38,252 nt of DNA from Dimargaris cristalligena (lineage: Eukaryota). The notes under the pieces are model-generated. The model saw nothing but the letters and a program-made list of their open reading frames with translations, was not told the DNA's origin and made no database searches. How positions within the stretch are numbered: the first letter of the stretch is position 1; each line of letters starts with the position of its first letter. Where the stretch lies: positions 1-38,252 of the forward strand of contig ML002361.1 in assembly GCA_003614675.1 (NCBI GenBank). Direction: 5' to 3'. The position numbers and the translations under genes were made by a program. Shown piece by piece: positions 14,874 through 38,164 of this stretch.

Positions 14874-15439
14874 TATCCGACGGCCCTAGCTTCGATTTCG
14901 CCCATTTAATTCACCCGTTTTAAGCCTATAATTCGCGACAAATCGGACCTTTGCATATTAGTAGTTCGCTTTCAACATGGGCCATGCTTTTCACATCCCA
15001 AGGTATCTTTTACTTTAACTCCTACCCATCAATTACAAACATATTTATTACAAGATACCGATCAATTTCGTTTGTTTTCAGTACTTTTTTATACGCTATT
15101 ATTTATCACAGCAGGTAGTCACTAAAGGGTAATATCATAAGTTGGATAGGGGATGCACGTGAGATGTCGATCTAACCCCACAGGGCTTGTGACGTTTTAC
15201 GACCCTTGTCTAACGCACATAATATTACTGATGTGTCCCTTCGCGTCCCCTTAATTATCATTCGGCAGTTCGAGTCATCGCTGCTTTGCATTACTCCGGG
15301 TTACCCCAGCCTGACCACAACACGCCATAATCGTGTCTCACTTTCAGTAACTACATTAGCTTCTTATAAAAAGGGCGTCTTCGGTGCACGTCGAAAAAGA
15401 ACAATCAACACAGCTCCCAACACTCTACATCATCACCGT

Positions 15440-15700
15440 TTTAGTTCTTCTATTTATCTTCCTATTTGTACCTATTATTTTCTTATACCCTGAATAAACC
15501 TTCGTCTTAACACCAACATTGACGTTGGACAAACTGGGGTTATCTCTAAACGCTTATATCGTTACAGGGCTGGTATAGCACAGGGAGCACTCTGATGTAA
15601 AGTCGAATGAAGCAAACCTTTTGGGCTATGGCTACTCTAATACCTGGCCACAAAAAACTTGGTCATTAGCTACACTGCCCCTTGCGGATTTCTCCTGCCA
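15440..15700 (+). mobile_element. Decayed Ty1/Copia RT-RNase H junction fragment
   Basis: SIYLPICT (15449-15472), KRLYRYRAG (15548-15574), LLGYGYSNTW (15618-15647), QKTWSLATLPLADF, against Copia SLxYLxxTRPD, KRILRYLKG, LxGYSDADW, KQxxVALSTxEAEY. Confidence 0.4.
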
Positions 15701-16508
15701 CCATTTGCATGCAGCCCACCATTATGTTCCAGTCTCACTAAGTTGTCGGCTGTATTAACAATCTGGTTATTTGAGCCCATATTCATACAATTAAATTGTA
15801 GCAGGCATTTGGTACGTCTAGGCGTATGGTACCCCCCCCCCCCTATTACACAGTAAAAAAAAGTCGCTCTATATAATTCAATAAGCAATTTTAAAGCAAA
15901 TGGTCCTAAAATAACCAATTTATTGTGAGAGTAATAATATGAAATAATTTAAAAAACTTCAATTGCTGACTCAAACATAAAAATAGGCCCCTCATAAACG
16001 GCTACCAGGTTTATAAATAAATCGTTCTAAACGAGAAAGAGTACATTTTCTTTCAAGAACTACTCCCTGTTGATTTTCTAAAGTGCCTATTGTCGCCAAC
16101 TTTGATAAGAGTACAGGTACCTAAATTAAAGCGCCCTGAATAGCCCTATCGGACTCTTATACACTCACTAACCCTCACTAACCCATGCTACAGACAGATA
16201 ATACCGACCTATTGATAGATATTGCATTATGCAGAGCATGCGATCGAATTTGACATTTTGGAACCCGGGACATATTTACCAATATAACCCTTCGGTAATT
16301 ATAGAATTACTAGGGTTATTCTAGTGTAATTAAAAATATCCGTTATAGTTGAACCCCAATAAAAGGCAGATTTATAGTGTTGTGTGCCAATCGGAGTTAA
16401 ATGATGTAGAGTATAAACGGTTTATAATATAGTGATATTACAAAGAAACCACCCAGAACTATGGGGAGGCGGGGGCAGTTAGGTTTGAAAACAACCAATG
16501 AGAGCACA

Positions 16509-16700
16509 CCTTTCCATTCTATTAGTTATTACACTAACCCTTTTATTGGATGGAGAGGCAATTGCAGTATGATGGGTACCTAATGCCTGTGGGAGGGGGG
16601 TACTAAATGGCGGGGGGTACCGTGTGCCTGATACACTGGCACCAAAAGATATGATTGATGGACTATTTATTAAATGTGAAAAATTTATGTGAAACCAATG
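16509..16700 (-). mobile_element. Possible decayed LTR-retrotransposon integrase core
   Basis: PSIISFG...FST...ALGTHH...P.SN...MER loosely follows PxxIISDxG..F.S..LGIxH..P..NG..ER; the catalytic Asp is absent. Confidence 0.25.
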
Positions 16701-17078
16701 GCTCCAAGTACCTATTTTTAAATAAGGTATACTATGTTGTAAAATATTCCCCATATGTAATAGCCGAGCCGTTTTCCCTGCCATATATATTAAACGACAA
16801 CTCCCGAGATGTCAAAAGCTAGTTTGCTTTTCGTCTCTAAGCCACACCATCGCACTCACCGAGAGACCCACAACTTAATCCGAGGAATTGATAGAAAATT
16901 GTATTTATAAAACTCATCAATAACTATCTAACGAAGTAACCATCAAGGTGTGGTGTAAAAAATAAAAGTAAAAGTAAAAATAAAATACTACATAATTTTC
17001 AGCACTAAGTAAACTATGATGGATGGAAACTGGCTAGACTGTTGTCAGGGAACATTTTGATAGTGGTCAATTAGTGCA

Positions 17079-18338
17079 TTAACCGAAAATAGACTTTTTA
17101 ACGCTGCTAAAATAATCCGTCCAGGTTGAACCCTGGGACTGAGTAGATGGGTCGGAGTTCGAGTTATTTTGATTGGCTTCAATTTGAGAACGGGCTTCGC
17201 CACTAAACCAGCGCTGATAAAACGGTCTATCATCATAGACAAAAAATAAGTCTTCGTCTTCGTCCTCCATTTTCTTGGGAGTTGGCTGGTTACCCTGCTT
17301 GCCTTCAGTTGAGTCGGAGGAAGGAACCTCGACCTTTTCCGGGTATTCACCGAGGCCAACAGTGGGCTGGGGTGGACGAAGCTCGTCCATGGGGCCAGAC
17401 TCGTCGGAGTTGAATCCAGAATGATAGACAGGGCTATCCCGGGGACCCAAAGCCTCATTACCGGCTGTTGAACTACCGTCGAAAAAGGCACCAGCCGCCA
17501 AGTTAGGGCGGTATCTGCCCTGCGGGGGTATATAGTTAGAAAGGTCGGAGTTAGCTGGTTCCTCACCAATAGCCAATGAACGCTGGTCTTTTTCGGTATC
17601 ATGGTCCAGCCGGGCCTCTACGGGATTTCCCATGATTTCATTTTTCAACCCCGACTGGTTCATCGGTGGGGGTGGAGGAAATGAGGGTTCATTTGCTGAA
17701 GAGGAATATAGCACCGGGTCGGAAGAACCGCGCTGTTCGAAACTGCCGTGGCCAGTCTCGTTAGTGTCCGCCTCTGGGTTGTTGAAGGGTTTCAAAGGAT
17801 GGTCATCGACGGGGCCAAAAGAGGGGAGACTGGGCTTTTCCGAGGTCTCTCCATCGCCACTCACGAGAGTCTTTTCGTCCTGGCTTGCATTGTAAGAGTA
17901 TGCCTGACTAGCCTCCGAGGTGAAGGGGCTCGTCGAATAATTCGAGTATTCGTTCTCGTATCCGAGGCTGGACTCATGTTTCTGGAAATTTCTTCCATTA
18001 TCAGAAAAACCGGCTAGGTTTACATCCAAGTAACTGGACCGACCAAACTTGTCGTAGCTATTGCCATAGGTTGGGTTCGCCGGCACGTCGAAGGCATAGT
18101 TGTGAGATTGGGGGTCGTAATAATTCGGGGGGCTATTGTTGGTCGAGTACCCGAACTGTCCGTAATTGTCGTAGCTATTGCCGTAGGTTGGGTTCGCCGG
18201 CACGTCGAAGGCATAGTTGTGAGCCTGGGGGCCGTAATAATTCTGGAGGACTTTTCCAGAACCGGCCGGATAAGAGGGAGCAGCGTAAGTGACAGTAGCC
18301 ACCAGAGTAAACATGGATAGGGTCAACGGGACCTTCAT
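17079..18338 (-). CDS. Secreted, low-complexity (Y/N/S/P/E-rich) orphan protein, 419 aa, intronless
   Basis: First ATG at 18338 gives the signal peptide MKVPLTLSMFTLVATVTYA|AP; long open frame; no recognisable domain. Confidence 0.8.
   Translation of the reverse strand: MKVPLTLSMFTLVATVTYAAPSYPAGSGKVLQNYYGPQAHNYAFDVPANPTYGNSYDNYGQFGYSTNNSPPNYYDPQSHNYAFDVPANPTYGNSYDKFGRSSYLDVNLAGFSDNGRNFQKHESSLGYENEYSNYSTSPFTSEASQAYSYNASQDEKTLVSGDGETSEKPSLPSFGPVDDHPLKPFNNPEADTNETGHGSFEQRGSSDPVLYSSSANEPSFPPPPPMNQSGLKNEIMGNPVEARLDHDTEKDQRSLAIGEEPANSDLSNYIPPQGRYRPNLAAGAFFDGSSTAGNEALGPRDSPVYHSGFNSDESGPMDELRPPQPTVGLGEYPEKVEVPSSDSTEGKQGNQPTPKKMEDEDEDLFFVYDDRPFYQRWFSGEARSQIEANQNNSNSDPSTQSQGSTWTDYFSSVKKSIFG
18049..18242 (-). 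repeat. Internal duplication: two ~77-bp near-identical copies 117 bp apart (39-aa period)
   Basis: 18049-18125 and 18166-18242 encode NYY(G/D)PQ(A/S)HNYAFDVPANPTYGNSYD twice. Confidence 0.95.
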
Positions 18339-19384
18339 TTTCGCTAGAGTCGACACAGTTTCCTCACTGCAAATTAACGCGGTAATAACCAAACGGGCTT
18401 GTGGATTGAGTCCGTTAATAGGTGGTCGGACAGCTTAACCGAAAAAAAAAAGTGTCAGGAGGAACATAAAATGAGGGCCTGGCAGCTAGTTACCTGTAAA
18501 GAGAGATTGAAAAGTCAAGGGAATACTAGGGTACGAGGCTACTCTTGTAATAGCCAAAACAAGGGGGCGAAGTAAATAACGAAGCCGCAGGGGAGACGGG
18601 CTGAACGGCAGGAAAATGGGCGATATTAATAGGCAATGGGAGACCCGTTGGCGTGATATATGTAACGCTGCTTTGGGGGAACTGTCTAGGGGATGAGGTG
18701 CGGAAAAATATAGGTACATTGGCACTGTAGTTTAGAGGAGCGGCGAAATATCCATGTTGTGCCTATTGGCAGTGGCTTAATAATAGAAGGCGGAATATTC
18801 GCGGATGTATGGTCTTTTCTCCTGTGTTCACCTCCTTAGCTGACTAGTACAACGCTGGCCGAACCAATCGGCCTGAGCTTACCCGCATCCGAGAATAAGT
18901 AGGTGCGCACAAGAGAAACGGTAGAAGGAAATTGTACATAGGGGGACGGCACGAATAATATCTCATATCGGAAATATCCCAGATGGGGGGAAGAAAAGGG
19001 AGGTAGCCGGGCAATCCTCTCCGCAAAACAAGTTTGTCGCATTTTAAAAATCATGCATTGATACTAGTCCGTTTTACTCAATTACATAACTCCTGTAACC
19101 ACTCCCACTACAAGCAACGTATTGGTGCGTACGCCAGTCGTAGCCGTGTCAAATCGCGGCACAGTCCCGGAAAAGCCGGAACGACTAAACTGCCATTGTT
19201 GCTGGGAGCCTCTACCCTCAAAGCCACTTCTTCGATATCGTTGTATTTATATGTTCGTTTTTGAAAATTATCAAATGCCTTCGTCGGGCACCTCGCCCAG
19301 GAGGTTTGTGGGTCCGGCATTGAATTGTAACACTGGAACGCCCCATGGCAACTTCAAGGTCGCTATATAAGCATGTGTTAACTC

Positions 19385-19820
19385 AGCATCGACTATGCCT
19401 CTTTAAGCCTTTCATATCTTTATGCAATGGCTACTTTGCGTCCTCTAAGGCTTATACTACGGGACTATCGAACCTTTCACTTCCAAAGGGCTTAACATTA
19501 CTACCATATCCTCAATTAATCTCCTAAATACCACAATACTCAATTTCTTACTTGAACTACTTCAGGCCTACCAACTCCATTAACCCGCTAGGACAAGTAT
19601 ACAGTTGATTTCTTCAATCTGAACAAGTCATCAACGAGTATCCACCCCACCTCCTACGCCATTTAATAACTTATGCATACCATGTTAGTCGATATTAACA
19701 GTATAGCCGAACTGCCTGATTTTATGTGCTTGCCGGACTCATCCAACAGTTCCCTAGAGCACCCCTATCCGAACCCCAATTATTATAAATCCCATCCAGC
19801 GGCAAACTCTGTTTTCCTGG
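19385..19820 (+). mobile_element. Decayed Ty3/Gypsy reverse transcriptase fragment
   Basis: IDYASLS (19388), SLCNGYF (19417), KAYTTGL, LPKGLTLLP (19480), LLELLQAYQL(fs)INP, LIQQFPRAPL, LSEPQLL*IP. Same order as Gypsy IDYRxLN, DLxxGY, KTAFxTxxG, MPFGLxNAP, VLxxLxxxxLxLNxxKC, FIxxFxxxAPL, LxxxPVLxxP. No intact YxDD. Confidence 0.45.
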
Positions 19821-20679
19821 CAAGACAAATAAAATCATAACTATACAAGTCAATTTAAATGCGGTTTAAGAGGTTGCTCTCCCGCAGTGCCATGCCGCGA
19901 CTTAATCACGGTGGTAGTGTTTTCATGCTAAAGCAGCGCCAGGCTCCTAGAGTAATTATGATGGTCTTCTTAAAAACCACATATGCTATTTTCAAACGCG
20001 GGAATGAATCATTGCATTCTCCCGTTCTTTAACTAGATATTAGAATGCCGTTTATGTGGGTCGGCGTTTTATATAGTATGACCCTAGTATAAGGACGGTT
20101 TTGCCGAAACAGACATTGGAGTAAAGATCGGAGGCTGAGTTGGTATTGATAATAGAACAAACCCCCATCCTGTGGACAAGGCTTCGACATCCATTCTTGG
20201 GCGGGAAGCCAATGTACAGCCGGGGAAAATATAAGTAAAGGATATTTTTACGGCCTGCATTATTTGGAGATTCCCCCATAACATTGGGGAAATTTAATCA
20301 AATAAATGGCTCTAAGGTAAATCCACTCAGGTCGACAATCGCTGGGGATATATATATATAGCCAAGTCGATGGTTCGACTAGCTATGCATGGTCATTATG
20401 TTGAATGGTTCAGTAATCCAGCTAGTGAACAGCACCATGTTTATAATATATATAAAACGACTCAGTCCACTATCTATGCAGCCTGTTAATTCATAGCGGC
20501 AACCTGTATTCAAAATCGAATACTCGTCCAGGTCTACTATTGGACGGTTTGTGTAACCCGCTTGCTTCCATCCATCAGAGCCTAAACACCTTGCCTACCC
20601 TATTATTTAACTGGAAGGGGCATTTCGCATTGCCCCTTCCTATGTACCCCCCTCCCGTCGTCTCTCTGGATTATAGGAG

Positions 20680-21060
20680 ACCCCGAAATAGGTCGAGTGG
20701 TACACCAGCAGTGGCACTAAACAAATCTTGAGTTACTGGAGGGTTTTCCGGGCCAGCTGTTTCGGTATACTTTTGGCCTGGATATAGAGCCTGATGATTA
20801 TTTTTTGGTCGTGTATAAGCAGATGAGGAGATACAGCATGTTATGTATCTGAAATCCACTGATAGCGTTATTATGGTACCTACAATAGCTACAGGTAGCA
20901 GGTGGATTCTAGGACACACAAGGACTTGACTTAAATATGCGAGAGGTTCAACTGGATTGTATTACCAAAAATCCGTCGGATGAGACCAATAATACCGGTT
21001 AAATAGGAACTACTCGCCTATTTTTCCCTGCCAATATTGTGTAAACTCTTATACAGCCAG
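20680..21060 (-). mobile_element. Decayed Ty3/Gypsy integrase fragment
   Basis: LHNIGREK, NRYYWS (21000-20983), LLPVAI...TLSVDF (to 20851), SSAYTRPKNN (20826), SATAGVPLDLFRG, against H..GxEKT, RYYWP, LxPLP..ISMDF, SxAYHPQTNG, HSxTGxSPFxLxYG. Confidence 0.55.
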
Positions 21061-21488
21061 GCCGAATTTCACTTATATTATGGGTCTTGAGCACTTCCAG
21101 ACCAAGGCCAAGCTAGGACAACACCACTATTCTTTGCCTTAGAGCGGATAGATTAAAACGTCAGCCTATAGATGTAGGCATGAATAGCCACTAGAATAAC
21201 ATAATATCGAGATCTGGAAACAATATTATTACAGTGGGGGGAGGTCAGCAGGGGCAGTGGAAGTACGTATATTCGGTGGGTAGGCGACTTAAAATGAGGC
21301 CAAACTGGAGCGCTTAATCGGATGAGCAGATTGACGCGGGCAAAGTTGGATTGGCAGAGGTAAAATTTGAGACTGGGGAAAGTAAAGATGGTCCCGATTG
21401 GGGCGTGGGGGCCCCTTTTGGTTGGGCAAACATAGGAGGGACCATGGGGGAGGAAGGGTGGTTGAAATCCCGTGGTGGGAACTTTACT

Positions 21489-21680
21489 GGACACTGTAGC
21501 TTTGGTTACTCGTATTTACTTATGGCTGCCATCCAATGGCCTAGTTCATCAATAGCGCAATTTTGTAACAAAATTATCCATGTTTTTATAGCTTTGACGC
21601 GTGATTTGGTCCTACCTACAGCATGGGATCCCCCAATTGAGCCAGTGCAAATTTGGCCTGAAATATACCTTTTCGACTAC
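21489..21680 (+). mobile_element. Second decayed Ty3/Gypsy integrase N-terminal fragment
   Basis: GH...QWP...IAQFC...PIEPVQIWPEIYLFDY keeps roughly the spacing of GHxG..YWP..DI..F..C..PxPxxPWxxIxMDF. Confidence 0.35.
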
Positions 21681-22548
21681 AGTCACTTCCGGTTTAGCGA
21701 ATTAGTATGTGATCAATATAACTCGACTAGAGAGCCCTGTTTCGCACGTCATTTGAGAGAGACAGAGAGGTGGTACTATGGAGATCCTTTGGACATAGTA
21801 ATCCCAAGTGCTAGTCATAAGCGACTAGTTTAACATAATTAGTTCAATCCACGATATCCATAACTCTCTGACGGGTATTGTTGGGTTATTTCATAGTGGT
21901 TGGGGTGATGTCTTTAGGAAAGTCTGTGGTTGGACGGGAGATTGATATTATAACTGTGTTGGTATTTACATAAATATTCTTACTATGGTGTACATAAGTA
22001 TGGCCTTTCCGATTCTACACTATATCAACTCACCACTCGGTAACACAGCCCTCTAAGCGATACTTCCCGTTGCACAGGAAAACCCTCCGAATAACTAGGA
22101 AGTCCTATTGGGTGATTAGTAAACTGATTGAATGGCACCGCCGCCCAGTTGTACTAATTTATGCGGCCCCGCTGGTCAGTGGGCTTGGATAAAAAAATTA
22201 GGGCGTTCATTGTCACACTCTAAGCGACCTTTTCCTACGCTATATATTATGACTACTGTATGTGTGTTACATTAGCCTGGCCGCGGTTGTACTTCGTTGA
22301 AAACGATGGGTAGAATACTACACCCTCCATCCCCACCAATCGTAGTGGTTATACTACGCAAACTATTTAGAAGAGGCATCAACCCCACTAAAATATATTT
22401 ACCTTTTATAAGGGCAACGCCCCTCCTACACGTGCTTTCATCGCTAGCTCATCGGCCGCCAGCCTTGTGTCAACCATTTTGGGATTATTAACCTCTTTTC
22501 ACACACTGTCTTATCCCCCTCCCATAGCTTCGATTTTTCTTTAATATA

Positions 22549-23996
22549 ATGCAACTTCGTGGATTCATCTCTTTACTGGGACTCGCGCTCGTTACCTCGG
22601 TTACCAGTCGCCCCTATCCCGGAACCCTAGCATCTGGCACCTTGCATGAACCAAAGGACCTTATCGACCACCGTGGCTCATTACCACTGCTTCCCCAAGA
22701 AGTATTTGACATGATTACTACTAATACATCATGCGGCGACCTTTGGGCATTGGCCCATGCAAGTAAGAATATGTATAATATGGTCATGAACTGTCCCCAA
22801 CTACGGAGGTTCCTTAAGGTGAGTAATACGACTTACACTACTCCACATGCCTAATGTAATCGGTTTCAATATTAGCCTGGATATACTATTGTCATTTAAT
22901 GTAGACTGCTTGATCGGCATGTTTAGTACCCTCTAGCATTCATGTTTATATTTATATGTATCTATTACATCATTGTGATTTACTTTGTTAAATGAAGCTT
23001 GGTCCCCTACTGGATAAGGACCAAGTTGATTTGTCAGTAGTCAAACAATTCCTTCCAGTGCAGCTGGAGAGCGCGTTAATCAAGAGTGCTTGGAAGTGGG
23101 ATTACGTCGACGTACAGCACGCACTGTCATTTTTCAACGAAAATCAAACAGCAGTTAACGAACAATTCGCGGCGGATGCGTCGTCGTTGCTGAAAAAGGA
23201 ACGACTTGTCACGATAGAATCGGAGTGGGATTACATCAACTACACCCTAATGACCGAATCGCAGCTCAAGGCCGTCTTCCCGCTTCTCCGTATAATACCC
23301 CACATGCCTGCCGATATCATCGCCCAAGTTTATAAAACCTTAATTGACAGTACCCTGAATCCCGCGAAAGTCACCGAGGGCTTCGATATTTGTCAGGACC
23401 AGCAGTCGTCCTCGATTCAGGGTGGATTCCGTAAACAGCGCTGTAATAACTTCCAGCCCATCCTGGTCGAGGAACTGCTGGTCAGTATCAGCGCGGTTCT
23501 CGCAGTCACCAACCAAATCGCCACGCTAAAGGAACTGGGGGTTAAGCTGAATGACTTGCGCGATCCTATCCAGCGCCCACTGCACGGGTACATTGCCCTG
23601 CTGGTTTTGGAATACGGCGGAGCGGAGCACCAAGGGTGGGCCTTCGCCCAGGTGATTCAACGGAGTGTCACTAAGGGCATTGCTGAACTGTTTGGCTTCC
23701 AAAATGCCATCCGATTGCTTCCAGATGAAGACAACACCTCCAACTTGGAACGCATGACCGCCTACCGCCGTTTGAGTGCCGATGCGTATGTCTATGCCCA
23801 CCGTTCCCCCCGCCACGCCCCCGCGCTGGCCATTCGGGTTCGGCGGCTATCGGTTGACAGGCTACTCCATGGAGCCGGTCTATCTGCGCCCGATTCCATT
23901 TGGCTCCCCCGTACCAATGTTAGCCAACTTTTGCAGCCTGTGGATATGATCGTCTCGGACTGGTTGATCCCGCAGGCCAACCCGCAATTCGCTTAG
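22549..23996 (+). CDS. Secreted protein with an N-terminal F-box-like motif, 2 exons (22549-22818, ~22998-23996), ~422 aa
   Basis: Signal peptide MQLRGFISLLGLALVTSVTS|RP. LPLLPQEVFDMITTNTSCGDLWALAHASKNMYNMV (22681-22785) matches the F-box pattern LxxLPxEIxxxI...DLxxLxxVSKxWxxL. GTGAGT donor at 22819 and in-frame AG at 22996-22997. Confidence 0.75.
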
Positions 23997-24821
23997 GGCT
24001 TTCCAACTGAACATCTCCCCTTGTTCGGCCGGAACTCCCCTACCACGGATGTCCCTGATTCTCGATCTAACGACGGGTGCTTTAATGATACGACTTTTTA
24101 ACATCGAACTAATCTAATTTAGCGAGCTTAACGATGCCGATTCTCGTCATTGAGCCACGTATAGACAAATGTATATGGTGTGAAATTAGCCAGTCGATTT
24201 AGTGAAGTGCAGTGGCATTTTGATACGATTCACGCATTCCTACGATTCCCCAGTTGGGGCCAAGGCGGCCTGCCGAATGCCAATGTAAGATGGGGTGGTC
24301 AAAATAAAAAACATACCTCATTGATTGAAAATTTTGGATAAGCCATCAGGCTGGCGTCTGGATAATGAAAGGAAAATCCAATAGACCGGGAGAATACTAC
24401 CAATCGCCTGGTAGCACTTGGGTGTATGAGTAAAAGGTGCTTTTGGTATTACGCCCACTGTAACACTATAGAGATGTAAATAAAAACAACCCTAGCGGAA
24501 TTGCCCCTTTATCCTATATAGTCGGCAACTCTAGCTGCAAAGACGCTGTACTGGGTTTGTGACCAGCCGTCAGTTTTTCAAGTAAAAACTCCGCACACCG
24601 CGCTGGTTGGCCATACACCGCGCCTTGCCTTTCTTTTCCTCTACGCACTGCCGACCCGGGCTATTTAGTCGAATATAGCGCCCATCTCGTATTATTATAG
24701 ACTCTGCCGATCTCCAATACAACCGAAAACGACTATTCGTTAGCCTTCATTCTCTTACGGCTATCCACTACTTCTTGCTTCTCTTACTAGCCCACGCTTT
24801 TCCTTTACTCCCATCCCCGTG

Positions 24822-26084
24822 ATGCTATCGCTTGACCTTCTAGGGTCGTTACAGGCGTGGGCAGCTTCCCACTACCATGAGAGTACTTACGGGCAACTCG
24901 CCCTTTTCACACTGGCCCTAGTAGGCCTAGCTACCCTCACCCGCCACTGGCTCGTCCCCGTGCCAGCCAAAACCCCCGCCGCACTCCACCTTGTGCCGTC
25001 GTCGTCGACGTATCCCCGCCCCCAATACACCCAGGCCCGCCGCATTCCGTTTTACGCGTTCCTATCCGATTTTCTGGCCAATCGCATTGAGATCAAGCAG
25101 CGGGATGGACAGGGTCTGGGGGCCTTGCCCGACTACCTAAGCTTTCCCTTCACGGTGCGAACGGCTTGGACCCTGGTGGTCCGCCTACTCCCGGGGTGGC
25201 TATGGCACGCTAAAGCAAGTGACCGGAAGAATTGGTGCCGTTTCCATGAGCACCGCGATGATCTGTTCGAGGCACTGCTGGGCCGCCAACGGATTGGGTT
25301 TATGCACCGGTTTTCGGACCACGATGAGTCGCTGGACAACGCCGGGGAAAACGACCTACCCCGTATCGCCCAGGAAATGCTCCACATCAACGCCGACGAT
25401 CGGCTCCTCAACCTCAGCACCGGATGGGGTACCCTGGAACTGTACTTGGGGTCCCAGTTTCCCCTGTTTATCACCACCGTATCACCAAGCCAAGAGCAGG
25501 CCCAGCATGCCTATGATTTGATGGAACGGGCGGGCATATCCGAACGCGTGCAAATCGAGACCTGTGACTTCCGCGATCTCCCCCCTCAGGAGCAGTTTAC
25601 CAAACTAGTTTGTCTGGAGGCCCTGGATTGGGTGGGCCAAAAGAATTTGGGCGATTTTTTCCAGCGCTGTGCCGATGTCTTGGTCCCTGGCGGCACGGCC
25701 TTGATTTACTGCACCACCTCGCCGTCCGCGTTCACGGGTAGCTGGTCCCAGTACCTGGGCGAAACCCTGCACTACCACCTGTATACGCTGACCACCATCT
25801 GCCCCGGTCGCGATACGGCCCTGTTCGCCACGTTGAATGACTACCTCGACGAGATCCACCGAGCGGGCTTGGAGGTCGACCTTATCGAAAATATTTCCCT
25901 GGACGCGTCGATGACTTACGCCCGGTGGTTCGAAAACTGGGATCAGGCCCGGCATATTATCCATATGCGGTACGGCGAGGACGTGTACCGCCAATGGGAA
26001 CTCTACCTGGCCTGGTCTAGCTCCATTCTGCTGCGCGGTGGGCTGAGCAAGCACTCCCTGCTGCTACGCAAGCCCATCCGGTAA
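24822..26084 (+). CDS. Divergent sphingolipid C9-methyltransferase / cyclopropane-synthase (CMAS) family protein, 420 aa, intronless
   Basis: N-terminal TM, then RRIPF, SFPFT, ESLD, RLLNLSTGWGTL, CDFRDLP, FTKLVCLEA, YRQWELYLAWS: the layout of fungal C9-methyltransferases, but with altered SAM-binding and catalytic motifs. Confidence 0.8.
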   Translation: MLSLDLLGSLQAWAASHYHESTYGQLALFTLALVGLATLTRHWLVPVPAKTPAALHLVPSSSTYPRPQYTQARRIPFYAFLSDFLANRIEIKQRDGQGLGALPDYLSFPFTVRTAWTLVVRLLPGWLWHAKASDRKNWCRFHEHRDDLFEALLGRQRIGFMHRFSDHDESLDNAGENDLPRIAQEMLHINADDRLLNLSTGWGTLELYLGSQFPLFITTVSPSQEQAQHAYDLMERAGISERVQIETCDFRDLPPQEQFTKLVCLEALDWVGQKNLGDFFQRCADVLVPGGTALIYCTTSPSAFTGSWSQYLGETLHYHLYTLTTICPGRDTALFATLNDYLDEIHRAGLEVDLIENISLDASMTYARWFENWDQARHIIHMRYGEDVYRQWELYLAWSSSILLRGGLSKHSLLLRKPIR

Positions 26085-26805
26085 CGCTCGGATAGCCTAG
26101 ATGGTTATATTCGAAGTGCCCAATCGGTTCATATAATGTAAAACATGTTTTAACGTAATTTCTATCAAATTTTGGAAGCTGTCCATTTGCCTATTCGTAT
26201 AATCTAACCAGTCTGGGGTCTTTTAAGAAAGTATGCTTAGTGCCCAAGTCCAGCCCTCCCGTTTCCCCAATGTTATTCCTACAGCTATTTTTTTCCGGGT
26301 TCTCTATTCATATTGGCCAGGGTTTAGTTTATTATCTAGTAAAACGTACTTTGGCTTATAGGGTGATACACCGCTATGGTTTGAAAGCTCATCGAGTTTG
26401 GCGTGGTTGAGTACAATGTGACTGTCCAATACTGTCTTCTAGATCTAAGCTGGTCGCTGGTTGTAATATGCAGTGGGCCACATGCCACGGGGGAGGGAGG
26501 TGTAAGTAGTGTAGGACCCTCCCTCCCTGTCAGCAACACTGAGTGAGTCACAAGGGCCACAACCCAGTTCCCCATCGCCAAGGGTAATTCGCAGTAATGA
26601 CCCCCGGAGAGAGTGTCAATACTTATTATTATCACATCGACTACTACTAGGCTGGGCTTCTGTTCAAAACTCTATTACTTTCGTCGATCGATTCTCCCAT
26701 TGTGAATTCCTTTCCATACGACTTTCGTGAATTATAGTTGTTTGGGACCTAGAGACGTATCTAATACACCCACCTTAAAATCCCCTGTCGCCAGCATCCT
26801 ATCGC

Positions 26806-28197
26806 ATGTCTACTCCCGCCGCATCCCTCTCAGCCGCCAAGAAGCAGCTCCGGCAAGAGCTGCGAAAGAAATTGGCGACAATAGGCCCCTCGGCCATTGA
26901 GGCCCAGTCCGTGGTGGTAACCAGACAAGTGCTAGCCCTGCCCCAATACAGCCAAGCCCGGCGGGTCTGTGTGTACCTCCACATGAGTAAAGAGGTGACC
27001 ACCAACGGAATAGTGGAAGCCATTTTCCGAGACGGTAAGTCCCTAATTGGATTGCAATTGTAACATGGGCCTCAGTTATCCCATGGATTTCCCAGCTCGT
27101 TTCCGCTGCTATACTTGTATTTTTAATCGCCGACGGTTGAACATTTCCTCCGTACCTTCATTATCCCCTCCTTGTAGATAAACAGTGCTTTGTGCCTCGG
27201 TGCACGCCGTCCACCATGGACATGGTCAGGATCCGAAATATGGAAGACTTCCTTCGTCTCCCCAAAAACAATTGGGGTATTCCCGAGCCGCCTTTATCCG
27301 AGAACCGTACCGATGGTAAGGCCCCGTCCTTTAACTTACAAAATACTGTTGGTCTAAAATGGCCTCGCAATTGCACCGAATATACCCAGCTCTATTATTG
27401 CTGGCTATGCACCTCCACAGTTACATTGTAAAATATGCTATGCAGAACTCTTGGCCATCTAATCACCCCATATAACGTGCCACGTCTTTTATTTGCTCAA
27501 CTAGTGTTTGACCTCGGTGGCCCTGATCTCATTATAATGCCAGGTAGGATAATTTATTAACCCTGGTAATTAGTGGTATCCTTAACCGGCCATTCTGTAT
27601 TCTTGCCATACGTCTAGAGTCGACTAGCAGATATAAGGGGCAAATCCACTCCTAGCAAACTACACGCTGCTAACCCGCCTTATTGCATATACGTATTTTT
27701 ATATTGGCTAGGCCTGGCCTTCGACCAAAAGAAAACCCGTCTAGGTCACGGAAAAGGGTAAATACTCATTTTTTTAACGCAACTAGGCTCTTGGGCTTCA
27801 CTTTGGAGTATCCTAACACATTGGTTAATTACTCATCAATTATTCTCTCGGCAACTTGTCAATATCGGTGCATATACTCCCGGTGATTAGCTACTACGAT
27901 AAATACCTCAAGAAATGTCGCGAATTCGCAGCTCAGCGGAACCAACCCCCGCCCGCTCTCGGTAAGAATGTCGTTTAATATTTCAACTCTCCGAACTTGC
28001 CTTCTCTTAGATACACGGTATTGAATAGTTGACAATGGCCAAAAAACTTATCGAACAGCTATATGTCAATGTATACATTCATTCCCAATCTAACAGTGGC
28101 ACTTGCCTTACAGGAGCAGATATTGGATGAAGATCTGCCACATAACGAGTTGGACGAAAAGCCCGATGTACTTGTGACACCCGATCATGTTTGGTAA
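26806..28197 (+). CDS. FAU1: 5-formyltetrahydrofolate cyclo-ligase, 6 exons (26806-27034, 27178-27315, 27505-27543, 27712-27757, 27891-27961, 28097-28197), 207 aa
   Basis: KKQLRQELR, VYLHMSKEV, CFVPR, WGIPEP, DLIIMPGLAFD, RLGHGKGYYDKY and EQI...LPHNELD are reconstituted by five phase-consistent GT-AG introns (624 nt). Confidence 0.95.
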
Positions 28198-29029
28198 AAG
28201 CGTCCCGTGTTCTCAAAAACTACTGCATTTTTAATACCTTCACACTTTTCATCGAATGGCGCGCCTTTCGAAGATGAAATCCCAAACTAACCGAAAAACA
28301 GTGACAGCTTATCTGAGAGAATATATTACCGGTACTATCGTATCACCTGAATAAATTTAGTTATAGATGTTAGAATCTATACCATTAATGCCGCTTCAAA
28401 AAAATATTATTATTTTTTTGCCGAAATGATATAACGTGTAATTGAACCGTGACGGGTTTTGCCTGTGTCGCGACGAGTAGGGGGCTAGTAATTTATATAT
28501 ATTTATATATATATATCTAAACTTAGAAAAGGCTGTGCCCCTGGTTGTAGTTACGCAGGGACGCGCCATTTTGGCTGCTATTCCAGGACGTAATATAATT
28601 ATGACGCCCATTGGTAAGCTTAGCTCTGAGGCATTTCAACTAATATTGGTAGATCCTCGGCAGTGAATACGCGAGACGTTCCCATGAGAAAATACACTAA
28701 TTGGAAGGAAAAGGGTTAGATCAGCCCAATGCATTACTGCGCTATCATCCAACTATACGCAATTAAACGTGGCCTCCGAAGTAGTATTGGGTTGAAGGCA
28801 CATAGAGTATATAATACATTAACTTTTACCATTCGCATCGACAATAATGGTTAGGCTGGTTTCTGAAACAGCCATTAATGGCGGCACCCCTGGCTAAATC
28901 AAGCAATATTATATGTAGATACACACGGCCACTGTCCTAGATGTAATATTCCCCTACGTAATTATAATTTACGAACTTTACATCTATCGATACCGATAAT
29001 TAATTAAATCGTATCTGCCGCGTCTCAAA

Positions 29030-29320
29030 ACAAAGGACAAAGGGGGCAGTCATTAAAGGATCGCCCTTTGTCCAGAAACCAATATGCCAATAATATGCAC
29101 GATAGTCTCCAAAAGGTTGAGTGCGAAGGACGCTCAGTGCTTATGGATAGAGAAAGTCGGAAAACGTAGGAACGAGGCTACTAATATAACCCATTCGACA
29201 CCTCCCACTATCCACGTTCCAATTCTATACTACCGCAGATGGATTGCAGCTGGAATGCATTTATTGACAGTGTAAAATGAACAATATCCCTTCCAACTAG
29301 CCTTTACGAACAAAAAAAAT
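29030..29320 (+). mobile_element. Possible decayed Ty3/Gypsy RT-RNase H connection fragment
   Basis: YYRRWI (29228-29245)...HLLTV*...FQLAFTNKK in one frame, against Gypsy YYRRFI...LLxK...QxAFxxLK; weak KxKDKGGS upstream. Confidence 0.3.
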
Positions 29321-29499
29321 AGGCATTAATCGCTTCCCCTTAGTCGGAGGATAAAATCCTACCTAAGGGTGAAGGCGAGTTATTGTCGATTACCAATTCA
29401 AGAATGACAAGTCGAGTGGACGAAGAGGGTGGCCACTAGAGGCGATTTTAGGAATTATTTCTACCTGTATCTAGCACAAACTAAATTTCTCTCACATGT

Positions 29500-29596
29500 G
29501 CCCCAGTAGCCTAGTGGTTAAGGCGCCGTGCTTATAGGGACTTTAACCTATACCTAAGCTACGCGGAGATCGCGAGTTCGACCCTCGCCTGGGGCA
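29500..29596 (+). tRNA. tRNA-Ile(UAU) with a 24-nt intron (29537-29560)
   Basis: Acceptor GCCCCAG/CTGGGGC, D arm GCCT/AGGC, anticodon stem CCGTG/CGCGG with TAT at 29533-29535, intron at 37/38, T arm GCGAG-TTCGACC-CTCGC, discriminator A. Confidence 0.95.
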
Positions 29597-29600
29597 TCAA

Positions 29601-29610
29601 TTTTTTTTTT
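29601..29610 (+). terminator. RNA polymerase III terminator (T10)
   Basis: Oligo-dT beginning 4 nt after tRNA-Ile. Confidence 0.85.
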
Positions 29611-29699
29611 GGATGACAATCCTTTTTACTTTCAGTGAAGGTATAGCTCAAGTTAGTGGTCAAGAAAATGGGGTTATGGGTCTAAAACTTACTAAGTAA

Positions 29700-30660
29700 T
29701 CGATTCTTTTGTCGCCAATGTGAAATAGTGAAGCACGCAATTATATCAACACATGGTAATGAATTTTAAGAGATGTCTTGGGAATCCCATGAGATCTTGT
29801 AAAGGAATGCGAAAATCTCCAACGAAGGTCGTGCGTGAGAGTTGTTTGTTAGAAAAATGAAGAGCAAAATATGGACAGCGTTACTTTAGTGGATGAAACT
29901 TTACAATACAAGTGAAGACTATTGAAATCGGAGGGAAACTTAATGGATAACGGGAGATAGGTGTCAACTCAATATGGGTTTCAAGATATCGATTGATACT
30001 GGCTGTTCAGCTTAATCGCGACTGGTAAAAAACTATTTTTTTAAAATTACAGGCTTGCCTTTTTCAATCATATTATATATTTTTTTTGAAAAATTGAACA
30101 GGCTGTTTCCCTTGCCAAGTAACTTTGCCTCTTCGCGCTATCTTGTTTAGAGTATTTTTTATATATATTTATTTTCACATTGCAGCGTTCCATTTTTTTT
30201 TTACTGTGGAGTACTGGCTATCTCTATTGGTGTCAGCCGATGCTGTGTGCTCTCTGAATAGACCAATCCGCGGTCTGATTTGAGCCCCTCTAGAAAAATT
30301 TGTACACACCCTACTATGGTTAAAGTGTAGATAAGATCTATTGTGGTTTTTTAACCAATGGTGTTTAGTTGATTGATATCGTGGAAAGAGAGGGAAAGGG
30401 CGAAATCAAGTATTTCATGGGTTCGGTGGCTAAAGTGACGGTTTGGTATTAACCCTTATGGGAACTGTTATATGGTGACTATGCAAGCTCGGCGCCCTGC
30501 ACGCCTCATTTAGCTCTTTTAGAGGCTTAATTTATATTAGAATACCAACATTTAACTGTTTAGTCGTGGCGTACGCATTCATTGCTTATCCAAGGTATGG
30601 GCTTCCAATGATGCGGCCAACGTGTTCTATCAATTGGGTGATGCTGGTTGCTGTTGTGAT
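29700..30660 (+). mobile_element. Decayed, internally deleted Ty1/Copia-like element (gag knuckle, protease, RT, RNase H traces)
   Basis: CRQCEIVKH (29710-29736, CX2CX4H), IDTGCS (29992-30009), SVDKI...GEIKYFMG (30324-30422), GLIYI...VAYA(fs)IHCLSK (30524-30594), GDAG (30637). Same strand and Copia domain order. The gag/protease part could belong to a different element. Confidence 0.45.
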
Positions 30661-30884
30661 ATAATTGGAAAACAATCCTATGCGAACGGCCGAAAAAATA
30701 ATTGTTTAATGGGTATTTAGCTTCAGACATTTTAATTAAAGTTAGTAAGGGAAACTGGTCAATATATTTTGTAAGGCGTTAGAAAGGCTGGCATCGACTG
30801 GATCAACCCCCTTGAGGAAAATGGAAAGTTGGAGTATGGGTGACTTTACTGTTCTATATCACAGTAACCTGACTTATTCAATGT

Positions 30885-31470
30885 ATCCACTTGGATGCAT
30901 CAGATATATCTTTAGTCAGCGGATAGACCCTGGTTCACTCGGCTGAGCCAGCCACTGAATCAAGTCGGGGTGACAGGGGCCCGGAACTTAGCATTGATCT
31001 GAGAATTTAATACTTGCGCCTAAACTAATGTGTAGCATAGGCTAGGTTTTCCTATACAGGGGAGAAAGGGAGGTGTTTCTTATTCCGGCATGGCCCACCA
31101 ACATGTTATGGTTGAATCCACTGGATAGTCCCAGTATAATTCGAAAGAAGGTCGGAGGAAACTGAGTTGGTATATCGTGTAAGTTCGTGAAGGTCCAGGG
31201 GGCCGCCGTCAAACCAAAGTAGAACCACTAAAGCCCCGGTCGGACCCCTAGGTCAACCCGTTGCCAAGCATTACCTACGTCGGGACGCCATTTTACCTGA
31301 CCGCTTTTGTTACCGAGACTTCCCCCCACTCGAACTCCTGATTTTGGTAAACAAGGGACCTGCCCCCTCCTTAACCTCGGCAGTTAATCCGAGTACGACA
31401 CTTCTATCCGGTCTAGGGATACATTCTTCGAATTCCTCGAGGAGTTCCAGGGGGGAGGTGCGGCGGAAAT
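30885..31470 (-). mobile_element. Decayed Ty3/Gypsy pol fragment (RT, RNase H trace)
   Basis: LELLEEFEECIP, VKEGAGPLF, VKW..DVGNAWQRV (31281), GL*W..FGLTAAPWTF (31218-31189), RYTNSVSSDLL (31177-31145), SDASKW (30904-30887), against LLxEFxDVF, AKWFSxLDLxxAY, MPFGLTNAPATF, RxMNxVLxDLL, TDAS. Confidence 0.6.
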
Positions 31471-31953: not shown

Positions 31954-33906
31954 ATGCTGCGCAATCTCTGCACGGGCCTATGCCTAGGGCTCGCCCTGTC
32001 CCCTTGGGGTGGATCTCTTGTTTCAGCCGCCTTTGACGCCAGCTGTAACTCCAACCTCGTCAATTACTGGGGCCAAAATTCTTACGGAGCGGCTAACCCC
32101 AGTGATTCCCAAAACTGGGAGAAACCCCTCGCCGATTACTGCCGCGACGATACCACGGACGTTCTAGTGCTCTCCTTCCTGCACATTTTCAATTCGGGCA
32201 CCGATCGTTTGCCCGGCACCAACTTCGCCAACCACTGCGACGTGACCTTCCCCGGTACGGATCTTTTGTATTGCCCCGACATTGGTAAAGACGTTAGCTA
32301 TTGTCAGTCCCGCGGCAAGAAGGTCCTGCTCTCGCTGGGTGGCGCGGCCGGTTCTTACGGGTTTGCTAATGATGCTGACGCGGTTAAATTCGCGAGCACT
32401 ATTTGGAACCTGTTCCTCGGCGGTTCGTCCGATACCCGCCCCTTCGGGTCCGTCCAACTGGATGGTATTGATTTGGATATTGAAGGCGGGTCAAGTACCG
32501 GCTACGCCGCCTTCGTCAAGGCCCTGCGCAACATGTACAGTAAGGCGTCCGACGGCAAACATTACCTGGTGGCTGCCGCCCCCCAGTGTCCCTACCCCGA
32601 TGCCTACATGGGCCCCCTTCTGAGCTCCAGCTGGGTCGATATGGTGTTTGTGCAATTCTACAACAACTTCTGCGGGGTCAACAACTTCCCCCGCTTCTTC
32701 AACTTTGAGGAGTGGCAGAACTGGGCCGATAAGGTGGCCGTCAATAAAAATGTCAAGGTGTACCTGGGGGTGGCCGGCTCCCCCAGTGCGGCGAGCTTCG
32801 GTTACGTGGGCCCGGACCGCTTGGCGGAAATCATCAACGACAGCCGGCCTAAATATCCAGCGTTCGGCGGAGTCATGATATGGGACGCCTCCCAAAGTTA
32901 TAACAATAAGGTTGGCGGGTCCAGTTTTGCTCAGTCTATCAAAAGCACGCTGCGCAAGGGCCAAAAGTGCGCCAGCGGCACGCTCCCGTCCGATGACACT
33001 TCCTCCACGGAATACCCCGTCGAGACCAAGACCAGTAACGTACCCATTGCTACTACTACCCGCAGTGTTCCCGCGCCCTCAACCACTACCAGTGACAAAC
33101 CCTCAGTGCCGAGTAAGACTAAGAGCGGATCGCCGAGTACTCCCACCGACCCCAGCGACACCTGCGTGGTTGAAGGAAGCCCATGCACGAACGCCAATCA
33201 GTACACCTGCAACGGCTACGACTTTGCCCAGTGTGTCTTTGGCCAATGGGTGATTCGTCACTGCAGCGAGGACCAGACCGTGGCCTGCTTTCCCTTGGGC
33301 AACGGTGGAGTCTACTGTGACCTCCCCCGCGGACGACCCGTTAAGGACTGTCCCAGTGCGGGGTCGGCCGCTGGCCTATTGACCCGTACCGATACTAGTT
33401 CCAACTCCCTCGTCGCGGGCGCCTGGACCCCTCAGAGCACCACGGTGCAGGTACCTAACCGCAATCCCCTGAGCAACATCCCCAAGCTAGATATTAACTT
33501 CCAGCTGGTGGACCAGGTCAGTCGGCGTTACCGGGCGCTCATGACCGTCCGAGTCACCACGGAAACCCCTATTTCCAAGGATTGGTCCATCACGCTTGCC
33601 ATGCCCGCCGGGCAATCCGTGGACTCGGCCCACTATGATGTATCCAAGACCGCCATTTTCCAGCTTACCCAGACCGCTCCCGCGGGTCTCGTGGGTTCCC
33701 CCTCAAAGGCAGCCACTCCCGCCATCAATATTGAATCCGGGGCAACTTTCCAGGCGGGCGGCCCGAGCCAGATCACTATTTCCTCCAGCTGGTCGAACAG
33801 CCAGGCTACGTTCATGGCCCTTTACGTGGCCCTGGAGGGTACCCACAACAGCAGCACCCCCTTCACTTTCCCCGATGCCTCCATGATTTCGTTTACCGCC
33901 AATTAG
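31954..33906 (+). CDS. Secreted GH18 class III (Cts1-like) chitinase with S/T linker, Cys-rich CBM19-like module and a C-terminal beta-rich domain, 650 aa
   Basis: Signal peptide; NYWGQNS, KKVLLSLGGA, intact catalytic DGIDLDIE (32461-32484), AAPQCPYPD, VQFYNN, FGGVMIWDAS; Cys-rich module at ~33160-33320. Confidence 0.95.
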   Translation: MLRNLCTGLCLGLALSPWGGSLVSAAFDASCNSNLVNYWGQNSYGAANPSDSQNWEKPLADYCRDDTTDVLVLSFLHIFNSGTDRLPGTNFANHCDVTFPGTDLLYCPDIGKDVSYCQSRGKKVLLSLGGAAGSYGFANDADAVKFASTIWNLFLGGSSDTRPFGSVQLDGIDLDIEGGSSTGYAAFVKALRNMYSKASDGKHYLVAAAPQCPYPDAYMGPLLSSSWVDMVFVQFYNNFCGVNNFPRFFNFEEWQNWADKVAVNKNVKVYLGVAGSPSAASFGYVGPDRLAEIINDSRPKYPAFGGVMIWDASQSYNNKVGGSSFAQSIKSTLRKGQKCASGTLPSDDTSSTEYPVETKTSNVPIATTTRSVPAPSTTTSDKPSVPSKTKSGSPSTPTDPSDTCVVEGSPCTNANQYTCNGYDFAQCVFGQWVIRHCSEDQTVACFPLGNGGVYCDLPRGRPVKDCPSAGSAAGLLTRTDTSSNSLVAGAWTPQSTTVQVPNRNPLSNIPKLDINFQLVDQVSRRYRALMTVRVTTETPISKDWSITLAMPAGQSVDSAHYDVSKTAIFQLTQTAPAGLVGSPSKAATPAINIESGATFQAGGPSQITISSSWSNSQATFMALYVALEGTHNSSTPFTFPDASMISFTAN

Positions 33907-36277: not shown

Positions 36278-37517
36278 TTATGGCAATTGGCACAGAGGGC
36301 CAGCCGTATGGTGGTAGCTAAAAGCCTTGACAACACCAATATAGTGCAGAATGGCAGCGGCCACCACGAATAGGTGGAAGATTTGGTGGGAGTGAAGCCA
36401 AAAATCAAACCGCCCGGGGGACCACCGCTCCGGCACGCGACCGGCGTAAATGAGGGCACCCACAATGTAAAACAGGGCCATACCTAAAATCCAGGCGAGC
36501 GAGAATGATTTTAAGGCCACCTCCAAGCCATAAATGGTAAGGCCATGCATAAGGGGCACCGCCCCCGAAAGGCCCATTCCAATAAAGAGCATCGTACGCG
36601 CCCAGCGGTACTTGCCCCCTTCAAACCGCTTCGACACGGAGAAATAGGCTGTCATACCCCCCAAAGCGCTAGTGGAGGTCAAGTAGAAGATCAGCCAGTT
36701 TGGATGGCAGTAGAAGGCGTAATAGATGGGCGGAAAGAACGACCCGACAATCAGAAATACAATACCCAAATAGTCGCATTTGTTCCATTGACGAGATACC
36801 TGAAGGCGCGGAGGAAATGTATTAAATCAATACAATATATGTATATATATAGCCATAAAGAAAGTTAACTGCTAATATATGCCACAGATATCTCACTAGG
36901 GCATTCGTTTTCGGAAAGGCCCAATAATCCTGTACCATGGTAATGGAAATCATATCACATCTCCGGGCCGGGAAATGGAGGTGGGGGGCTACGGCTGCTT
37001 TGTAATTCGGTAAACATATAACACAGGAACCTACCGAGTGGGAGTGGCAGCTCACCAAGTGGAAGGTGGTGGAAAGGGATAGACAGGCGACTGCTCCAGC
37101 GATAAAAATGAACATGACCATCACATCCAGCCACTGAACCGTCGATTGATGCTGGACCATAAAACCGGCGGCCAGCCCCCCAAAACCGAGGAACAGAAGG
37201 GCCCCCAGCAAATGGGAGTACACATTGCCGGTTTCGTTGTGAAGGTAAAACAGAGAGCGGAAGCACTGTTTGTAGGACTGGAGGGGCGGTCGGTAGCCCG
37301 TAAGAATATACATATTGTCCTGCATCCAGGCAGGGAGCTCTTCGAAATGGAGTAGTCGGTGGGCGGTCACCTTGAGCGCAGAAGCGAGGTTCTGGGCCGT
37401 ATACGTGTGGGGGTCAGTAGTAGTGCCGGTGGTTAATTTAGACCCACTGTTTTCGGCCGGCAAGCCCAAATGGGGAGCCGACTTGGCCTGCCGTTGTCGA
37501 AGAGTTGCCGAAGGCAT
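36278..37517 (-). CDS. PAQR / Izh (adiponectin receptor, HlyIII) family 7-TM protein, 2 exons (37517-37035, 36799-36278), 334 aa
   Basis: ELPAWMQDNMYILTGYRP, HNETGNVYSH, STTFHLVSCHS|VSRQWNKCDYLGI, PERWSPGRFD, SHQIFH are the PAQR signature motifs; phase-0 GT-AG intron. Confidence 0.95.
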
Positions 37518-38091
37518 GGGAGAATGAAGGTAGAGGGAAGGAGGTACCGGTCAGGTGAAATGACCCGGGCAACAAAGGGAATGGAGCGAAATATATGTAG
37601 AGGCCAACCAAACCAGTTGTCACTAGAGGCCCATATGCCTATGGGCCGTAGACAATATCTCTCACAGGTACTGATGAAAATCAGCCCACCACGAGGTGCT
37701 TATCAGTATCCAGGGGTTAATAATAATATCCTACAAGATATACTCACCTTCATTTTACTAGCAAAGTGGTTACGTAAACCAGTAATATGACTAAGTAAAT
37801 CACCTATAAGACAATTAGATAAAGAAATGGCGAGGTATTGGCTAACAAAAAATAAACTAGTTTAGATACGTGGATTTGGAAGACGATTTCTCTGAATAAT
37901 TTCAGCTTATATGTCAAATCCGTATCGGACGATAGAACCCCCCCCCTTCAAAAAAAACGAAGCGAATTACAGATGGATTCAATACAACTTCTACTCATTA
38001 CAAGGGAGCATCACATGCTGATGGAGTCGTAAAATTATCATATGATTGTGGGGGAAGATCATAAAACGTAAAAATAAATTACAAAATCTTT

Positions 38092-38164
38092 TGGAGGACC
38101 AGGGTATCGATCCCCGTGCCTCTCGCATGCTAAGCGAGCGCTCTCCCATTTGAGCTAGACCCCC
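38092..38164 (-). tRNA. tRNA-Ala(AGC), intronless
   Basis: GGGGGTC-TA-GCTC-AAATGGGA-GAGC-G-CTCGC-TTAGCAT-GCGAG-AGGCA-CGGGG-ATCGATA-CCCTG-GTCCTCC-A, with the G3:U70 Ala determinant and T-rich tracts downstream. Confidence 0.93.

Follow-up and report, generated by a model that had tools for sequence, protein, structure and literature searches.

Dimargaris cristalligena is a haustorial mycoparasite. In the window of 38,252 nucleotides analysed here (assembly GCA_003614675.1, the whole of the stretch on contig ML002361.1), a two-exon gene at 22549..23996 of the forward strand encodes a protein in which a predicted signal peptide is followed by a divergent F-box-like segment and by a helical C-terminal domain. 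This gene is quite possibly, at somewhat less than an even chance, a member of a family of exported, host-directed F-box adaptors that is restricted to D. cristalligena and diverges rapidly. Overall, the sequence evidence partly supports the proposal that the family is a plausible candidate effector family for hijacking host protein degradation. In the proposed mechanism, the signal peptide would direct the protein into the endoplasmic reticulum (ER) of the parasite and be cut after Ser20, the F-box being kept from the parasite's own cytosolic Skp1; the mature protein would then be secreted at the haustorial interface and somehow enter the cytoplasm of the host, a mucoralean fungus. There, the F-box would dock through its LPxE motif on the highly conserved Skp1-Cul1 core of the host, and the helical C-terminal domain, strongly divergent between paralogues, would pick host proteins for ubiquitination. 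The boldest form of this idea, which as a whole we hold to be rather doubtful, is that D. cristalligena has evolved, inside its own lineage, at least 8–10 Sec-exported F-box adaptors with a hitherto unseen helical substrate-recognition domain, which would be injected via haustoria, plug into the nearly identical Skp1-Cul1 of the host and mark host proteins for destruction, the signal peptide doubling as a safety device against the parasite's own Skp1-Cul1-F-box (SCF) ligase.

Bacteria, viruses and a gall midge are already known to hijack E3 ligases. If the proposal is true, the paralogues described here would represent the first effector family by which a fungus-on-fungus parasite hijacks ubiquitin ligases; and if the family binds host Skp1, the same strategy would have arisen independently in a fungus, in the form of a natural, diversified set of degraders whose target-binding fold is new. 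Effectors have hardly been explored in mycoparasites, or in early-diverging fungi generally. Because parasite and host are both culturable fungi, the family would also be a ready test case for the crossing of the haustorial interface by effectors.

Gene structure and paralogue family

Exon 1 (22549..22818, forward strand) comprises 90 codons and ends at a GTGAGT donor at 22819. The intron (22819..22997, 179 nt, GTGAGT...AAG, phase 0) is predicted from sequence, and exon 2 (22998..23996) encodes residues 91–422 plus the stop codon, that is, the family-defining C-terminal domain, which is helical but for a small beta-sheet. The two exons had been joined in an earlier note on this DNA, and the spliced product is in fact letter-for-letter identical to the deposited 422-residue protein RKP38498.1 (P0029) of D. 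cristalligena. The other assembly of this species carries the same 422-residue model (P0001), which is 99% identical and differs by three substitutions, all of them in exon 2. Upstream of the ATG at 22549, a stop is reached after only seven in-frame codons, and the second Met of the protein is residue 55, within the F-box; since no alternative ATG allows a complete F-box product without it, such a product must begin with the hydrophobic N-terminus. Furthermore, the linkage between signal peptide and F-box is independent of splicing, because both are encoded by one uninterrupted exon, and the predicted splice matters only for joining the C-terminal domain to the N-terminal part.

The paralogues of this gene were recovered with an exhaustive phmmer search of exon 2 against 1.84 billion representative proteins, which gave 18 proteins at E ≤ 0.001 (12 of them at ≤ 1e-10 and 3 at ≤ 1e-30), with identities to the target of 20–34%. 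Exact look-ups of the corresponding clusters (50% identity) showed that all 18 contain D. cristalligena proteins only, from two assemblies. The exhaustive search was needed to see the family, as word-indexed searches returned nothing but the counterpart of this gene in the other assembly or, with the family profile, two proteins. No NCBIfam match was obtained for the six family members searched, and tblastn with all family proteins detected no further copy within the window. As a control, the neighbouring methyltransferase was searched in a related collection, where orthologues at 54% (Dispira simplex) and 52% (Dimargaris verticillata) identity were retrieved. The database thus includes proteomes of other Dimargaritales, and the lack of family members outside a single species carries information, with low-coverage assemblies as a caveat; the family is apparently species-restricted. 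One paralogue has been annotated in two ways (P0010, P0024, P0025), either as a 528-residue protein extended N-terminally by a long Tyr/Asn/Pro-rich sequence or as two genes of 126 and 442 residues, and both alternative first exons start in a signal-peptide-like manner.

A family alignment was built from the longest models (22 rows), and conservation was measured as the mean BLOSUM62 pair score over 18 rows. A signal-peptide-like N-terminus has been found in 10 of the 18 clusters, 8 of which also carry an [LIMA]-P-x-E segment; in other words, every cluster with an F-box-like segment (8/8) lies among the signal-peptide-bearing ones. The pair scores are 1.55 for the signal peptide (residues 1–20), 2.38 for residues 21–24, −0.17 for the linker (25–44), 0.10 for the F-box segment (45–90) and 0.00 to 1.81 for the C-terminal blocks. 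Thus, the export signal ranks with the best-conserved parts of the protein and the F-box with the poorest-conserved ones, which speaks against a strongly constrained F-box and for a real use of the N-terminus. The maximum-likelihood tree of the C-terminal domain, for which only midpoint rooting was available, shows two clades with 100/100 support each and a median terminal branch of 0.91 changes per site; with such long terminal branches, the family is, by its sequences, a fast-evolving one. Four clusters with both signal peptide and F-box fall in each of the two clades, and therefore this architecture is probably ancestral.

Alternatively, the N-terminal architecture could be an annotation artefact, the true start lying elsewhere (for example, in a transcript beginning in the intron, with the in-frame ATG at 22992 immediately before exon 2) and the real product lacking the signal peptide, the F-box or both. 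The gene model is a prediction from sequence, the models of 8 of the 18 clusters start inside the C-terminal domain, the GC content at third codon positions is lower in exon 1 (0.49) than in exon 2 (0.63), and the 5′ exons of the doubly annotated paralogue differ between assemblies (P0010 versus P0024 and P0025). This explanation is nevertheless quite improbable, given that exon 1 has protein-level homology to the N-termini of the paralogues (tblastn E 1.2e-5, window positions 22594–22818), that the start Met and signal peptide are alignable across 10 clusters and that two independent annotations arrived at an identical 422-residue model; in addition, the GC content falls to 0.32 in the intron between exons of 0.485 and 0.535.

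Export signal and mature N-terminus

The earlier note had proposed a signal peptide, and the N-terminus is consistent with this assignment, which was made here by classical hand rules and reading of the alignment. The predicted cleavable signal peptide (codons 1–20, 22549..22608, forward strand) consists of an MQLR n-region with one Arg among the first five residues, a 16-residue uncharged core (residues 5–20) and the tripeptide V-T-S before the cut, with Val at −3 and Ser at −1 of a cleavage site after Ser20. The three rules for Sec-type signals (a positive n-region, a hydrophobic core of 7–16 residues and small uncharged residues at −3 and −1) are all obeyed by the target and by 10 further N-terminal models. 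In the paralogues, an N-terminus of the same kind can be aligned for 10 of the 18 clusters and consists of M-[KR], an uncharged core of 12–16 residues, small residues at −3 and −1 and an X-Pro dipeptide. No second hydrophobic segment long enough to span a membrane occurs in the protein. The C-termini that were read show neither KDEL nor HDEL nor a hydrophobic tail; the missing retention signal would fit release of the protein rather than its retention in the ER.

The predicted mature protein starts with R-P-Y-P, followed by a variable linker (codons 21–44, 22609..22680, forward strand) that is modelled by AlphaFold2 at a predicted local distance difference test (pLDDT) below 50. Residues 21–24 (window positions 22609–22620) form the best-conserved short block of the family. 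An X-Pro dipeptide occupies positions +1/+2 after the predicted cut in 11 of 11 signal-peptide-bearing models, and two successive X-Pro dipeptides are found in 6 of these 11 (RP-YP, RP-QP, RP-RP, HP-HP, LP-GP). This block is reminiscent of the substrates of secretory-pathway dipeptidyl aminopeptidases of the Ste13 type, which we take to be a candidate likeness only.

A different explanation for the hydrophobic N-terminus would be that of an uncleaved anchor in the ER or the mitochondrial outer membrane. In that case, the F-box and the C-terminal domain would remain in the cytosol of the parasite, and the family would consist of membrane-tethered endogenous SCF adaptors; a step of translocation into the host would become unnecessary. 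Membrane-associated F-box proteins do exist, such as yeast Mdm30 and Mfb1, and in the target the first 33 residues are free of acidic residues and the hydrophobic core is followed by an Arg. On the other hand, an uncharged core of 12–16 residues is rather short to span a membrane, the Kyte-Doolittle maximum over 19 residues at the N-terminus amounts to 0.96–2.0 across the members (1.40 in the target), the positive charge lies on the N-terminal side, and small residues at −3 and −1 are kept in all 11 models. Such features fit a cleaved signal with a lumenal mature part, and an anchored, endogenous family is unlikely.

The F-box-like segment

A divergent F-box-like segment occupies codons 45–90 (22681..22818, forward strand). 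With exon 1 as query, PF00646 is matched at E 0.16 (12.4 bits) by residues 46–83 (22684–22797), aligned to positions 2–39 of the 43 in the profile, and a 58-residue fragment of the target gives E 0.077 (13.4 bits) with PF00646 and E 0.13 (12.5 bits) with PF12937. The curated gathering cut-offs of Pfam are 20.5 bits for PF00646 and 24.3 bits for PF12937. An F-box had been expected about 24 residues after the cleavage site, and the match indeed begins 25–26 residues past the predicted cut. Its description as a well-matched F-box holds only in part, as the target reaches only 12.4–13.4 bits against the 20.5 required, whereas the LPxE motif is present and one paralogue, P0011, does pass the cut-off.

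The LPxE motif of the target (L48-P49-Q-E51) stands at the start of helix 1 and is followed by spaced hydrophobic positions; LPxE is the core Skp1-contact motif of F-boxes. Its Pro and Glu are kept without exception in the eight aligned members, whose pairwise identities are 10–33%. When the F-box-like fragments were searched against PF00646 at E ≤ 10, seven of the eight matched in the same register (29.3, 18.1, 17.1, 15.9, 14.1, 13.4 and 12.4 bits), with no match for the fragment of P0024 at this threshold. P0011 alone of the eight segments passes the Pfam cut-off, with 29.3 bits as a fragment and 25.0 bits (E 1.7e-5) at full length. The other families matching the fragments are PF12937 and PF15966, both of them F-box families, together with one DUF5902 match (E 0.14) of the target's fragment. 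In UniRef, the automatic name of the target and of six other clusters is "F-box domain-containing protein". From these sequence comparisons, it is concluded that residues 45–90 are probably a diverged F-box by descent.

Several observations weigh against the proposal of exported, Skp1-binding adaptors. The F-box of the target scores under the Pfam cut-off, and a full-length query yields no Pfam match at E ≤ 1. A profile of the segment retrieves the F-boxes of FBXW7 and Skp2 from the PDB only at E 0.9–1.5 (2 of 4 matches). In the AlphaFold2 model, the segment comprises helices 50–59, 62–81 and 83–90, at a pLDDT of about 57–61 and with helices merged, and with its pair score of 0.10 it is among the poorest-conserved parts of the family. 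Two paralogues (P0005 and P0008) have the signal peptide and an unrecognisable F-box place, and the late-starting models of 8 of the 18 clusters mean either that the full architecture is not universal or that these models are truncated. As for the export route, the F-box contains an N-X-S/T sequon (N59) that could become glycosylated in the ER, and no host-translocation motif of a known type was found. At the level of the family, the effector interpretation of the earlier note thus stands in so far as the combination of export signal, F-box and novel domain recurs in 8 of the 18 clusters, and is weakened by the poor conservation of the F-box and its loss from recognition in P0005 and P0008.

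Some of these observations would be explained if the family were secreted, or resident in the secretory pathway, and worked through its conserved helical C-terminal domain, the F-box-like stretch being a decaying ancestral relic that does not bind Skp1 at least in this member. Such a relic is a minority possibility, though one of some substance. It agrees with the pair scores of the signal peptide (1.55) and of C-terminal blocks (0.85–1.81) as compared with 0.10 for the F-box segment, with the two signal-peptide-bearing paralogues without a recognisable F-box and with the passing of the Pfam cut-off by only one of eight segments; the F-box is also missing from one recognised SSGP-71 effector, according to the available part of the source (PMC4617103). 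Decay of this kind is more difficult to reconcile with the Pro and Glu of LPxE being kept in all eight members despite identities of 10–33% and with an F-box profile still matched in register by seven of eight segments. The invariance of these two residues and the in-register matches point to selection on the Skp1-contact motif.

The C-terminal domain

The C-terminal part of about 330 residues had been described in the earlier note as a domain without WD40, LRR (leucine-rich repeat) or Kelch repeats, and this is borne out by Pfam, no family of which matches exon 2 at E ≤ 10; WD40, LRR and Kelch are therefore absent. Using the family alignment, AlphaFold2 produced a model with a mean pLDDT of 72.8 and a predicted template modelling score of 0.72, in which most of residues 160–410 lie at 75–95, the F-box region at about 57–61 and the signal peptide and linker below 50; the single-sequence prediction was uninformative (pLDDT 34.8). 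The predicted fold is all-helical save for strands at 167–171, 355–359 and 365–372. The most conserved motifs of the family also sit in this domain, for example those with the consensus AVLAxTGQFxKLxEL, LEYG and LAIRVRRST.

Comparisons of the model with known structures, which were dominated by the C-terminal domain, gave no Foldseek match in the PDB at E ≤ 0.001. With VIA-align, the best Z among 48,161 chains was 5.6, obtained for designed helical repeats and eIF3; this value lies in the range stated as noise for helical proteins. Sequence searches of the PDB, whether by the protein itself or by profiles of the F-box and of the family, returned nothing below E 0.36, and in the ESM Atlas all leads scored below 0.9, the F-box clusters among them (0.82) ranking 18th and 20th. 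Taken as modelled, the C-terminal 330 residues would be a confidently folded, new helical domain, relatives of which were not found in Pfam or the PDB.

Genomic surroundings

The gene is preceded by an intergenic gap of 4210 bp (18339–22548), which the earlier note had described as rich in relics of transposable elements. The gap is real; the relics were not recovered by open reading frame (ORF) and Pfam, repeat or dinucleotide tests, which heavily decayed relics could escape. Specifically, none of the 20 ORFs of at least 55 residues in the gap matches Pfam at E ≤ 0.1; repeats of at least 25 nt, tandem repeats and tRNA or Rfam matches were likewise not found between 18339 and 22548; and the dinucleotide indices of the gap are not different from those of other non-coding parts of the window, with no bias of the repeat-induced point mutation type standing out. 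On the other side of the gap, the divergent upstream neighbour (P0036, 17079..18338, reverse strand) encodes a Tyr/Asn/Pro-rich low-complexity protein with a signal-peptide-like start MKVPLTLSMFTLVATVTYA. This neighbour has no Pfam match and contains two tandem copies of about 39 residues, seen in the DNA as a direct repeat (18029–18132 and 18146–18249, 87% identical). A homology between P0036 and the N-terminal extension of the paralogue P0024 was considered and rejected (best E 3.9).

Downstream, the methyltransferase used above as a control is of the CMAS type (24744..26084, forward strand), and its orthologue has been named sphingolipid C9-methyltransferase by one source. Its identity to the orthologues of D. 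verticillata and Dispira simplex is only 52–54%, and therefore the sequenced Dimargaritales are deeply diverged. A further gene (31954..33906, forward strand) encodes a GH18 chitinase (Pfam E 7.5e-20), which is noteworthy in a fungus that parasitizes hosts with chitin walls. The chitinase begins in a signal-peptide-like manner and contains a linker rich in Ser, Thr and Pro as well as a Cys-rich stretch, and its long C-terminal part matches no Pfam family. A membrane protein of the HlyIII/PAQR type (36278..37550, reverse strand) is split into two adjacent ORFs in different frames, 36822–37550 covering profile positions 1–75 and 36278–36826 covering positions 72–224, which reflects either a short intron or a frameshift. 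Two tRNA genes were also detected. One of 97 nt (29500..29596, forward strand; Rfam 57.8 bits, no ARAGORN call) is, from its length, presumably intron-bearing, and the other is a tRNA-Ala(AGC) (38092..38164, reverse strand) called by both ARAGORN and Rfam. Finally, two gene-poor, low-GC stretches without long ORFs are present, at 15000–17078 (GC 0.385) and at 26085–31947 (GC 0.429), the latter containing the 97-nt tRNA.

Comparison with known systems

Canonical cytosolic or nuclear F-box proteins (PF00646/PF12937) resemble the D. cristalligena protein in having an LPxE-type motif and helices placed N-terminally to a putative substrate-binding domain. Unlike the target, they have no export signal, and the target scores under the family cut-off. 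Legionella AnkB and Agrobacterium VirF are bacterial F-box effectors; together with Ralstonia RipG/GALA, they share with the family described here the condition of parasite-made F-box proteins proposed to join host SCF ligases. They differ in being delivered by type III or IV secretion, as opposed to the Sec-type signal peptide predicted here, in their LRR or ankyrin target domains and in their bacterial acquisition from eukaryotes, as opposed to a fungal gene family. In fact, of the traits of host-delivered effectors, the D. cristalligena family shows that of a lineage-specific, expanded and diversified parasite family; a repeat-type target domain (LRR or ankyrin) was not found, exon 2 being without a Pfam match at E ≤ 10. 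In the case of Ralstonia, RipG7 has been reported to bind Arabidopsis SKP1-like proteins in the available part of the source (PMC4617103).

Among fungi, a predicted secreted candidate effector with an F-box-like domain (NLS_30765, PF12937, 2.8e-07) has been listed in Rhizophagus clarus (PMC4746824). As far as the available part of that source goes, this protein is likewise fungal and F-box-like, has no other homology and is a purely computational proposal; it differs in being a single 542-residue candidate of a plant symbiont with no known paralogue family and no known relation to the C-terminal domain described here, and is set beside the target by description only. More generally, a comparison of Ascomycota calls the link of F-box domains to eukaryotic pathogenicity unclear, in the portion of the article available (PMC8146833). 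The literature search retrieved nothing combining "Dimargaris" with "F-box", and the phrase "secreted F-box" was not met in the literature searched for it. The term "F-box" is also absent from the main text, so far as available, of papers on the zygomycete secretome (PMC9391592), on Kickxellomycotina genomics (PMC9866270) and on a mycoparasite effector (PMC13188720, dated 2026).

By analogy, the nearest precedent is the SSGP-71 family of the Hessian fly, Mayetiola destructor. These effectors carry an N-terminal F-box and have been described as interacting with host Skp proteins (PMC4617103). They differ from the D. cristalligena family in their leucine-rich repeats and in the experimental evidence for plant Skp binding, as against a new helical fold, a fungal host and evidence from sequence and model only. 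The likeness, as far as the available parts of the sources extend, comprises a eukaryotic parasite with a large, diversified and lineage-specific family (PMC4617103), in which an F-box follows a secretion signal and precedes a variable C-terminal target-binding domain, and of which some members are without the F-box (PMC4617103; for signal-peptide genes, PMC7330099).

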